Assembly (NCBI GenBank): GCA_963765145.1
Contig: CAVXVG010000027.1
Coordinates: 32,001-96,000 of the forward strand
Source: Parachlamydiales bacterium
Lineage (GTDB): Bacteria; Chlamydiota; Chlamydiia; Chlamydiales; JAJFMK01
Reading direction: 5' to 3'
DNA: 64,000 bases
Positions 33,748 to 38,939 of this stretch are shown here, one piece after another; the first letter of the stretch is position 1; each line of letters begins with the position of its first letter. A model generated the notes under the pieces. That model was given only the letters and a program-made list of their open reading frames with translations, searched no databases and was not told the origin of the DNA. Made by a program: the position numbers and the translations under genes.

Positions 33748-35746
33748 ATGACAATGAGGGGCTTTTTTAATGAAGTGCGATATCAGGACAATCCTTTGGG
33801 AGCCCTGCTAAGCCTTCTTCAAAGAGAACAAGCTCTTGAAAAGGCAGAAGATGTAGAACAGATGCGCTTCGTCGGATATGTTCTCGATCTAGGGTATGAC
33901 AAAGCCACGATCATCACTTCTGATCCATACAAGCGCGCTGTCGGGGGTATTCCGCGCGGCTCCTTCTTGATTATGGCTCCCGAGAAAATGGAAGCGATGC
34001 CGCCACATTTCACCTTGCTTCGTGTGATGGACGTTGCTCAGACTCCCTTAAATACACACGTCCAACAGACTTATTTCGAACTACATAAAAAATCCATGCC
34101 AGAACTCGATCGTTGGACTCAAGGAGAGCTTCAGTGGGGCGCCTTAAACTGTTCGGTTTTGGGAATGTTTTATCCGGACCCCTCCGATGCCACTAAATTA
34201 GCGTTTTCTGGCGACGTAAACAACATAGTTAGTGCACATCGATATAAGGTCTTTTCTCCCAATTCCGAGCTTCTCACAATGATTGTAAATGGCATAGTCA
34301 GGGAAAATGGGCGTTTTTCCTTAGGCGACCTTCGAATGACTGAATGTCAACTCCTTTTTCAGAGTGAATCGGATAATCCTAAGATTCCAGTTGAAATTTC
34401 AACTCTTGACTTTCGGGGCTTTCGAACGGCGATGTTTGGTAAGACGCGTTTGGGAAAATCAAATGCAGTAAAGCTAATAGCTCAAAGTATGATCGAATCC
34501 ACCAAGACTGATCGATCTGTGGGTCAACTGATTTTTGATATTAATGGTGAATATGCGAATGATAATCCACAAGATGACAATCAATCATTGCGCAGCGCAT
34601 ATCAAGATAGATGCGTTGTTTATGCTCTAGTTCAACGTCCTAAAACGCCATCTAAACCACTTCGTCTCAATTTTTATGAGCAACCAGATAGCTGCATTAG
34701 AGTTATTGCTTCATTCTTAAAAAACGACAATAAAAACTCTAACTATATGCGAAGTTTTGCGAGCGTGACCTTACTTTCGATTGCTGACATAAAGTCACTC
34801 CCCGAAGAAGAGCGCATTAGGCCAATTCGTCGGATTCTTTATTATTGGGCCATCTTGAAAGACGCGGGTTTCGAAGCGAGTGAAAAACGCTTAATTGAGC
34901 TTGGCCTGCGTGGAGGAGATGTGCGAGGATTCGATCCTCATTTCAATAAGGCGCTTCGAGAAGCTGCTTATGAGCATGCTGAACAAGAAGTACCAGATGA
35001 GCCTTCAACTCTCAATGAGTTAATTGCAGAACTGAAGGTTGTTAATAAATTTCGGCTTGGGTGCTCCAAACATGTCGCGCTTGTCTCCTCTAAAAGCAAA
35101 GAACCGCTATTTGATCCTGATGATACTGCCCTGTTGGGTTTCTTAGATCCTTCTAGTGGAACTGGATCCAGTGTCCTGCGTTCTTATAAGGACTATCATT
35201 CCGTATTCAGCGGGAGATTTTATTGGGGAAATTCTTGCTCATATAGATGAAGGTCAAACAGTTATTCTTGATCTCGGCAATGCGACAGATGAACTTAGAC
35301 GATATTTCGCTGATATGCTTTCCAGTAAGATTTTTTCTCATCAAGAACAAAAATTCACCTCGGATACTCTAGGCGAGCATTTCGTACAGCTCTACTTTGA
35401 AGAAGCTCATAACCTTTTTCCTAAAGACGGGAAGGATTTTACCGGAGTTTATGCCCGATTTGCTAAAGAGGGTGCAAAATTTCACATCGGTATTGTTTTT
35501 TCCACCCAGTCTCCTTCTACAATCAACCAAGAGTTGCTTGCACAAACGGAGAACTTCTTTATTGGACACCTGTCTTCTCAAGATGAAGCCAAAGCTCTCG
35601 GGCGCGTTCAAGTGCAGTTTGCTGGGCTAGAAGAGGAAATTATGCGTTCTAGGACGCCTGGCTATATGCGTATGCTTACCCGCTCGCATCGTTTTGTAAT
35701 CCCTGTACAAACTCGTCGTTTTGAACCCGTACCTAGCCGCGATTAG
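33748..35746 (+). CDS. HerA/DUF87-family ATPase, split by a 1-nt frameshift near 35200
   Basis: N-terminal HAS-like barrel (FVGYVLDLGY), Walker A GKTRLGKS, FDINGEY; second ORF has Walker B LYFEEAH, AKEGAKF, STQSP. Confidence 0.85.
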
Positions 35747-35757
35747 AGGATTGTTCA

Positions 35758-37143: not shown

Positions 37144-38025
37144 TTAATTTTTTGTTGAGGATATGATTATATCACTAAGAATTTTTCCCCATTTAGACTC
37201 AACGTCCTTCCCAACAATTAACTCGTCAATAATTCCTTGGTTGTATAAATCGATGAAGCGGATAAAATCTGACTCGCGGCTGCTCCATTGCTCTTTGCCA
37301 TCAATGAAGACAGCGTGATGGATCCTAGAGTGGTGCTTTTCCTCGTATTCTCTTAACTCTCTGCCCACTAAGAGGCACTCATAGACGGCATCGCTCATTT
37401 TACTACCGCCTGAAGTTTTTCCCCAATATTCCTTGATTTCCCATACGAGAAAGGGATTTACCAGGCACGGGATAGCCCCGTCCAGATTTCTGGCAGTAAT
37501 GTAGAGGTGCTTTTCTTGAAACCACACGCAACGATGTTGCGGGTCAACATCAATAGAGAGCTTAAATTTCTGTGCAATCTCAGAGCTGATTTTGGTAACT
37601 GCCCCCACAAGAGACTTTGAGGATTGGTGATGCCCCTGATTTTTTGTCGCCGTTTTTCCTACACTAACCCCGATCTTTTCGCAGAATAATAGAGCTTCGT
37701 CTTCACTTCTCAAGTTAGCTTTTTGAAGCAAAAATTGCTCCTCGGAATCCTTAAGATACTTAAAGAAGAGATCAATGGTTTCTTTTTTTAGAGGAACAGA
37801 CCCGTGAATTTCGGGCTTTTTCGCACCTTTACCCTGGACTAAGATGGGGAGAGCCGTCTTTTCTTCCAGATACTCTTTAAGAAAATCGCTTTGCTTCTTA
37901 GCCCCTCTTCCAAGTGACCGAAAATATCGCACCAAATCCCATAATTCATCACGCCAGCCAAGTTCCTGGTACTTATTGAAGACTCTCATTTCTTGACTTT
38001 TCGATGAGCTCTTTCGCACTATCAA
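37144..38025 (-). CDS. Putative PD-(D/E)xK restriction endonuclease
   Basis: RNLDGAIP...VWEIKEYW motif; 4-bp overlap with the methylase stop. Confidence 0.65.
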   Translation of the reverse strand: MIVRKSSSKSQEMRVFNKYQELGWRDELWDLVRYFRSLGRGAKKQSDFLKEYLEEKTALPILVQGKGAKKPEIHGSVPLKKETIDLFFKYLKDSEEQFLLQKANLRSEDEALLFCEKIGVSVGKTATKNQGHHQSSKSLVGAVTKISSEIAQKFKLSIDVDPQHRCVWFQEKHLYITARNLDGAIPCLVNPFLVWEIKEYWGKTSGGSKMSDAVYECLLVGRELREYEEKHHSRIHHAVFIDGKEQWSSRESDFIRFIDLYNQGIIDELIVGKDVESKWGKILSDIIISSTKN

Positions 38026-38939
38026 GTCGCCTTGTAATTCGTAATCAGCAGCTCAACTATGTCTCGTTCTTGAGAGTTCAAATTAATTTCGCGCCTTGCA
38101 GAAATACGATGGATGTGAAAACCTGAAAATAACTGCTTAACAAATTCTGTGTCACTATTGCTGACAGCCCACCGCACCCCTTTAGCATCCAGTTCCCTAC
38201 ATAAGGCAGCTAGTCTAAAATGATCTTTTTCTCGGAATTGTTGTGACGTGTAGCGATTAAAATCCGAATATCCTCCAAGCTTGTAATAGGGAGGATCAAA
38301 ATAGACAAAATCACCTTCAGAAATTCCATAGAGGGAGAGTTCAAAATCACATGATTTTATCTCTACTTGAGAGAGAGCTAGAGAAATAGCCTCGAAGTTT
38401 TGCGCATCATAATATCGTCTATCATACTCTCCATAAGGAACATTAAACTGGCCTTTTTGGTTAACTCGAAAAAGACCTCTGAAACATGTCTTATTCAGAT
38501 AAATGAATTGCGCTGCTCGCTCATATAAATCAAGCGTCCAAGGATCTACAGCTCTAATTCTAAGAAACTCTTGACTAGAGTTAATCATTTTATCAAGATA
38601 TCCTGCGACCAACTGCCAGTTGCTTTTCAAAGCTAGATAAGCATCGATTAGCCATTCATTTTGATCTGAAATAACAGACCGTCGATGTTTTAAACTGAAA
38701 AACACACTACCGCCTCCTAAAAACGGCTCAAAATAAGTTCCGAAATCTTTAGGGAAAAACGAAATAAGCCCACTGACTATAGAATGCTTACCTCCAACCC
38801 ATTTTATAAAAGGTTTTGGGCAGTATAGCGGCTCTATTTTTTGACTCATCTCAGGAAACATATCCATCTCTAGGCTAATCCGTTGATCCCTAAATTTTTG
38901 AGATGAAGCAAATGACCGTATTCTATTTAATGAAGTCAT
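38022..38939 (-). CDS. Dam/DpnM-family N6-adenine DNA methyltransferase
   Basis: KWVGGK, EPFLGGGS, YLNKTCFRGLFRVN..GQFNVPYG, DPPY, SNS, ELLITNY. Confidence 0.95.
   Translation of the reverse strand: MTSLNRIRSFASSQKFRDQRISLEMDMFPEMSQKIEPLYCPKPFIKWVGGKHSIVSGLISFFPKDFGTYFEPFLGGGSVFFSLKHRRSVISDQNEWLIDAYLALKSNWQLVAGYLDKMINSSQEFLRIRAVDPWTLDLYERAAQFIYLNKTCFRGLFRVNQKGQFNVPYGEYDRRYYDAQNFEAISLALSQVEIKSCDFELSLYGISEGDFVYFDPPYYKLGGYSDFNRYTSQQFREKDHFRLAALCRELDAKGVRWAVSNSDTEFVKQLFSGFHIHRISARREINLNSQERDIVELLITNYKAT

Follow-up and report, generated by a model that had tools for sequence, protein, structure and literature searches.

In the Tdp system, reportedly described by An et al. in 2025, a TdpA hexamer and TdpB are said to degrade unmarked phage DNA, and the mark to block pumping on self DNA. 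Excerpts of PMC12914056 present Tdp as a phosphorothioate restriction-modification (R-M) system with the consensus G(PS)ATC. A second combination of a NurA-like nuclease, a HerA-like ring ATPase and a methylase is encoded, at a tRNA gene, by the tth111II-nurA-tdtA-methylase operon of ICETh1 in Thermus thermophilus HB27, which functions in DNA donation (PMC5365140, in excerpt) and in which loss of the methylase had only minor effects on transfer (PMC7767461, in excerpt). HerA-NurA also resects DNA ends in archaea and Deinococcus, and parts of PMC13748450 state that bacterial NurA-HerA degrades viral DNA. The passages of PMC12839542, PMC10853773, PMC13223576 and PMC13251355 that were consulted do not describe a cassette in which such a pair is linked to a Dam-type methylase, and a literature search found no describing paper among the texts seen in part.

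The window analysed here is a 64,000-nucleotide stretch of a Parachlamydiales contig. It contains a variable region (24180..41267) that ends near the 3′ end of a tRNA-Pro(GGG) gene (41316-41392) and measures about 17 kb, as against about 1.7 kb in a complete genome of the same genus. Within it, four genes lie at the positions given by the initial annotation. On the plus strand are a frameshifted gene for a TdpA-like HerA ATPase (33748..35746; defined by ORF calls, a DUF87 match and alignment with L001, the closest relative) and an intact gene for a 446-aa TdpB/NurA-fold nuclease with a Zn-ribbon insert (35758..37098). The minus strand carries an independent R-M system, consisting of a DUF7687 type II restriction endonuclease, likely of the PD-(D/E)XK type (37144..38025), and its partner, a DpnM/Dam-like m6A methyltransferase with a predicted GATC-like target (38022..38939). 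The spacing is tight, as first described: the nuclease gene starts 11 bp after herA, methylase and endonuclease genes overlap by 4 bp and the convergent stop codons are 45 bp apart (37099-37143). The Walker A (GKTRLGKS) and Walker B (FEEAH) motifs of HerA were likewise found (DUF87, E 3.5e-9).

L001 shares 81% DNA identity with the window over 33739-37096 and its HerA is intact. Because the window has one extra base near 35201-35203 in the alignment with L001, herA is split into two ORFs, one of 500 aa with Walker A and one of 196 aa with Walker B, which are 89% and 94% identical to the L001 protein. Frame checks against related loci flagged 5 of 33 gene comparisons as broken; two of these are apparent shadow ORFs, and the other three are changes of frame, in herA, in the gene at 30227-31038 and in one gene on another contig. 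Core genes of the host assembly, recA for example, were whole in the same comparison, so indel errors are evidently uncommon in this assembly. No read or contig spanning 35201-35203 was found. The break is probably real, although it may be an assembly error, and given the frameshift the HerA of the window likely cannot work. The gene at 30227-31038 (minus strand), split over two frames relative to L231, provides a second indication that the variable region is decaying.

The nuclease has no match of its own in Pfam, PADLOC or NCBIfam. By fold, however, it resembles NurA/TdpB, in keeping with its original description as NurA-like, and the CxxC..CxxC insert noted at that time is real: C185, C188, C204 and C207 are each kept in 128-132 of 132 close relatives. 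The other conserved residues are D68-G, E241, D269-G and E305-K, and the motif III histidine is mostly replaced by asparagine (113/132 relatives), a difference from archaeal and Deinococcus HerA-NurA. Since the protein is missed by Pfam and PADLOC 2.0, current annotation presents loci of this kind as apparent orphan Dam methylases.

The systems with which the HerA protein had initially been compared did not include the closest one, TdpABC (PDB 8wet, 8wfd, 8y1k). The best PDB match of the L001 HerA is TdpA (E 7.8e-27, with the next hit, HerA, at 7.3e-9), the HerA profile aligns to TdpA over 453 columns at 99.9% in hhalign, and TdpA forms the sister clade in the HerA tree, in which outgroup branches are long. 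TdpB is correspondingly the best PDB relative of the nuclease, so that the two ATPases and the two nucleases are mutually closest among solved relatives. Both systems also combine the pair with just one DNA-marking enzyme in a shared operon, and both have a GATC-type mark (for Tdp according to excerpts of PMC12914056, for the cassette by prediction). They differ in the writer, which is an m6A methylase in the cassette and the DndC-like TdpC in Tdp; in gene order (methylase-herA-nuclease versus tdpC-tdpB-tdpA); in the size of the nuclease (446 aa with the Zn-ribbon insert versus 375 aa) and of HerA (665 versus 586 aa); and in their hosts, those of the cassette being mostly non-thermophiles. Identity is only 29% for HerA and 11-18% for the nuclease, and the copy in the window is broken. 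In relatives, a D12 methylase takes the place of a TdpC-type writer, and PF01507 was unmatched in the host genome, which is 84.8% complete. As the features of TdpA and TdpB are found and TdpC is not, the cassette is Tdp-like rather than a member of TdpABC. In the phylum of Meiothermus, the HerA profile finds loci with full-length matches to TdpA and TdpB next to a PAPS-reductase/DndC-like gene, while a methylase is adjacent in 11/11 HerA-nuclease loci at intermediate distance. The SIR2-HerA and DUF4297-HerA systems share the use of a HerA motor in defence, but have other effectors and no methylase; the cassette scored 16-33 bits against NCBIfam cut-offs of 800-850 and was not assigned to them.

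Relatives of the nuclease were collected at 107 genome loci (35 from one search combined with the best 80 of 199 from another) and 80 metagenome loci (80 of 100). Among the matches listed, herA lies directly upstream of the nuclease gene in 97/101 genome and 72/72 metagenome loci with enough sequence. A Dam-family methylase gene in turn lies directly upstream of herA, on the same strand, in 87/92 genome and 52/53 metagenome loci of those listed, counting loci with at least 3 kb of upstream sequence; among the exceptions, the methylase is 2-2.5 kb further upstream in two, herA has also been lost in three and the methylase is downstream in one. The median gap from methylase stop to herA start is -1 bp, and the gap is at most 30 bp in 79/82. 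In the window, the place occupied by the cognate methylase in relatives is an AT-rich stretch (33560..33747, 22% GC); no methylase remnant was found upstream of herA, and homology to L001 begins at 33739, at the stop codon of the L001 methylase. The cassette is patchily distributed and has spread sideways, reaching 23 phyla among the matches listed and 2/400 genomes of the host phylum. It has no constant neighbour, be it restriction enzyme, integrase or other gene, the largest flank cluster covering 11 of the 187 loci listed; type III-like mod genes (10 loci), UvrD-nuclease genes (10) and integrases (6) recur modestly among these 187.

Several individual arrangements were seen around the operon. 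Neighbours seen repeatedly (10 loci, including L012 and L042) are a UvrD-PD-(D/E)XK gene and a type III-like mod/res pair, and Piwi-domain or pPIWI-RE genes lie near the operon in a few loci (L022 10041-13125, L218 and L280). In L003 (3468-5169), methylase and herA are separated by an insertion comprising a DndB/DpdB-like gene and a small ORF. In L001 (8662-14631), the operon borders an apparent small integrative element, read by eye as a short Zn-binding ORF, an NTPase and a DUF1016-like gene.

The operon methylases keep DPPY in 139/142 and motif I in 140/142, and their closest solved structure is DpnM. The base-reading positions of EcoDam include 124 and 134 (PMC4417163, in excerpt). Arginine at position 124 is kept in 142/142 operon methylases, and position 134 is proline in 65 and glycine in 76 of the 142. 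On the HerA tree these two subtypes separate without exception, into 53 and 29 rows with a single change (support 100), which shows that methylase and HerA genes travel together and does not thereby prove co-adaptation. Subtype A, which holds the HerA of the window, is predicted from its residues to have a GATC-like target.

The R-M pair (37144-38939) is likely an ordinary type II system. Its endonuclease matches DUF7687 (E 1.8e-64), a family without a solved relative by sequence, and the PADLOC model REase_II (E 7.5e-26), and D182 and E196-x-K198 are conserved in 95% or more of the rows in an alignment of 34. Its methylase belongs to the D12/Dam family (TIGR00571 above cut-off), and no other D12 methylase turned up in the host genome (84.8% complete). 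As had been described, an endonuclease with a D...EIK motif (D..ExK) overlaps a DPPY methylase, and both motifs are intact, as is FxGxG in the methylase. Like type IIP systems with a DpnM/Dam-like methylase, the pair combines a D12 methylase with a separate endonuclease and is matched by the PADLOC models MTase_II and REase_II; it differs in that the endonuclease is DUF7687, and the target site of the pair is predicted. The two genes travel together, a methylase at least 50% identical to that of the window being present in 34/39 endonuclease loci and the other 5/39 ending before the upstream region. Beside the pair, 7/38 ORFs match PADLOC at 1e-20. The two genes are divergent in 27 loci outside the chlamydial group (L115-L146) and co-directional in the 7 closest. 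The nearest relatives of the pair bear the name Chlamydiae, in line with a likely chlamydial host.

The R-M pair and the HerA-nuclease genes are two independent modules with separate histories. The DUF7687 endonuclease is present in none of the 107 genome and 80 metagenome loci of the nuclease family (0/187 among the matches listed, many of them short downstream), and in the reverse search neither HerA nor the nuclease was found in any of 40 endonuclease loci. In a tree of 173 methylases, the window enzyme falls within a clade of 31 endonuclease-linked rows (support 99), apart from the 142 operon enzymes, and it is 36% identical to the cognate methylase of L001. The proposed tie of HerA-NurA to DNA methylation therefore holds, through the upstream methylase of relatives, and that to the R-M pair of the window does not. 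The two modules are likely neighbours because each was inserted at the tRNA-Pro hotspot.

On balance we favour, with less than firm confidence, the reading that the window combines a likely ordinary type II R-M system with a frameshifted, methylase-less copy of a widespread methylase-HerA-NurA cassette, predicted to be a methylation-based version of Tdp. In such a cassette the Dam-like enzyme would mark host DNA with m6A at a GATC-like site, and a TdpA-like ring would pump duplex DNA into the TdpB-like nuclease. The methyl mark would stop loading or pumping on self DNA, and unmarked phage or plasmid DNA would be destroyed without a classical restriction enzyme. Candidates for reading the mark are the Zn-ribbon insert, the longer helical part of HerA and the methylase acting as a specificity subunit. 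Several points weigh against this methylation-based reading. A ring that grips the backbone is harder to picture sensing a methyl group in the major groove than a backbone sulfur. Defence neighbours are not clearly enriched (PADLOC matches at 1e-20 in 9/103 adjacent ORFs versus 4/52 ORFs 5-8 kb away and the 7/38 beside the R-M pair). There is no modification gene next to two relatives on cyanobacterial plasmids (23-24% identity) or next to L285, L044 keeps HerA and nuclease intact despite a broken methylase, and the related Thermus operon works in donation (PMC5365140, in excerpt).

Since its cognate methylase is lost and its HerA split, the window cassette is likely dead; in this one case, the break in herA may have been selected for once protection was lost. 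A broader proposal, which we hold to be evenly poised, is that HerA-NurA machines of the TdpAB type make up a single large restriction family whose self-mark can be exchanged, being phosphorothioate (TdpC), Dam-like m6A in two recognition-hairpin subtypes, or a mark made by PF01555 enzymes. The Dam branch, found in 23 phyla among the matches listed and absent from PADLOC 2.0, would then be R-M without a restriction endonuclease, with a processive motor-nuclease reading base methylation, and the window would represent an outcome of writer loss, with either the motor off or a neighbouring methylase standing in. If this is true, a single motor-nuclease scaffold can be adapted to sense base methylation instead of backbone sulfur, and the cassette offers a direct test of how the ring tells self from non-self. 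The window locus is a poor test object, being broken and having a four-gene appearance that is coincidental; intact cassettes in cultured, non-pathogenic Halomonas, Deinococcus, Meiothermus and Paenibacillus are ready for testing.

We consider it unlikely that the cassette is a module for DNA export or capture, in which HerA would pump DNA to other cells and the methylase would protect or mark the cargo. TdtA and its NurA are required for donation in Thermus, where their operon also encodes a PF01555 methylase and a type IIG enzyme transcribed along with them (PMC5365140, in excerpt; compared by description), and PF01555 methylases occur in sister clades of the cassette HerA. However, the cassette lacks a constant neighbour, a type IIG-like gene occurs in only 3/187 flanks among the matches listed, and donation requires competent recipients, which is improbable across 23 phyla. 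Moreover, the Thermus methylase is nearly dispensable for transfer (PMC7767461, in excerpt), yet that of the cassette is almost always kept.

It is also doubtful, and rather improbable, that the modules are partially coupled, such that the frameshift is an assembly error and the R-M methylase marks the GATC-like site of the lost cognate methylase, having rendered it redundant and shielding the host from a still-active HerA-NurA. The nuclease gene is intact and the R-M methylase has no D12 counterpart in the genome; both methylase clades are nearest to DpnM among solved structures, and the arginine and proline at EcoDam positions 124 and 134 are present in 28/31 endonuclease-linked methylases, proline also marking the operon subtype with the HerA of the window. 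Against this, the arrangement is a single case that recurs in 0/187 of the loci listed, the specificities are predicted from few residues and the whole core genes make an indel error uncommon.

An accessory role in methylation-guided DNA repair or end resection has little to recommend it, even though archaeal and Deinococcus HerA-NurA resect ends (PMC13748450, in excerpt) and RefSeq calls distant members 'DNA double-strand break repair nuclease NurA'. Those repair proteins have no methylase partner, and their HerA resembles that of the cassette weakly (4d2i, E 2.4e-5), the cassette pair being closer to TdpAB. The patchy spread, with the HerA family in 2/400 host-phylum genomes, agrees with the initial view that housekeeping repair is unlikely. 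RecC-like and RecD-like genes were found in the host, in line with the RecBCD stated at the outset, and repair genes do not recur in flank clusters. The archaeal HerA-NurA-Mre11-Rad50 group was rejected as an assignment on that same distribution and on the lack of recurring mre11/rad50 in the flank clusters scanned; as first reported, neither gene is among the flanking ORFs scanned in the window.

That all four genes form one selected unit, with HerA-NurA degrading unmethylated DNA from the breaks that the endonuclease makes in it, is highly improbable despite the tight convergent layout and the Thermus precedent for a restriction enzyme with NurA-HerA (PMC5365140, in excerpt), given the zero co-occurrence in either direction among the matches listed, the finding that L108, from a related genome, has this R-M pair (81% identical at the DNA level) in different surroundings, the five other host-phylum genomes that have DUF7687 and no HerA match, and the frameshifted HerA.

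Other features of the window were noted. Upstream of the R-M pair, a 552-aa ORF (39058-40716, minus strand) has no match in Pfam, PADLOC or NCBIfam and only weak look-alikes in the atlas; given its D..D..ECK-like motif, it may be a further nuclease. Ahead of herA, remnants of short ORFs (33100-33517, plus strand) weakly match L112 as well as another contig of the host and are possibly leftovers of a small mobile element. At about 42560-42930, a MITE-like repeat of ~330 bp with inverted self-similarity also occurs on at least 5 other host contigs at 79-84% identity.
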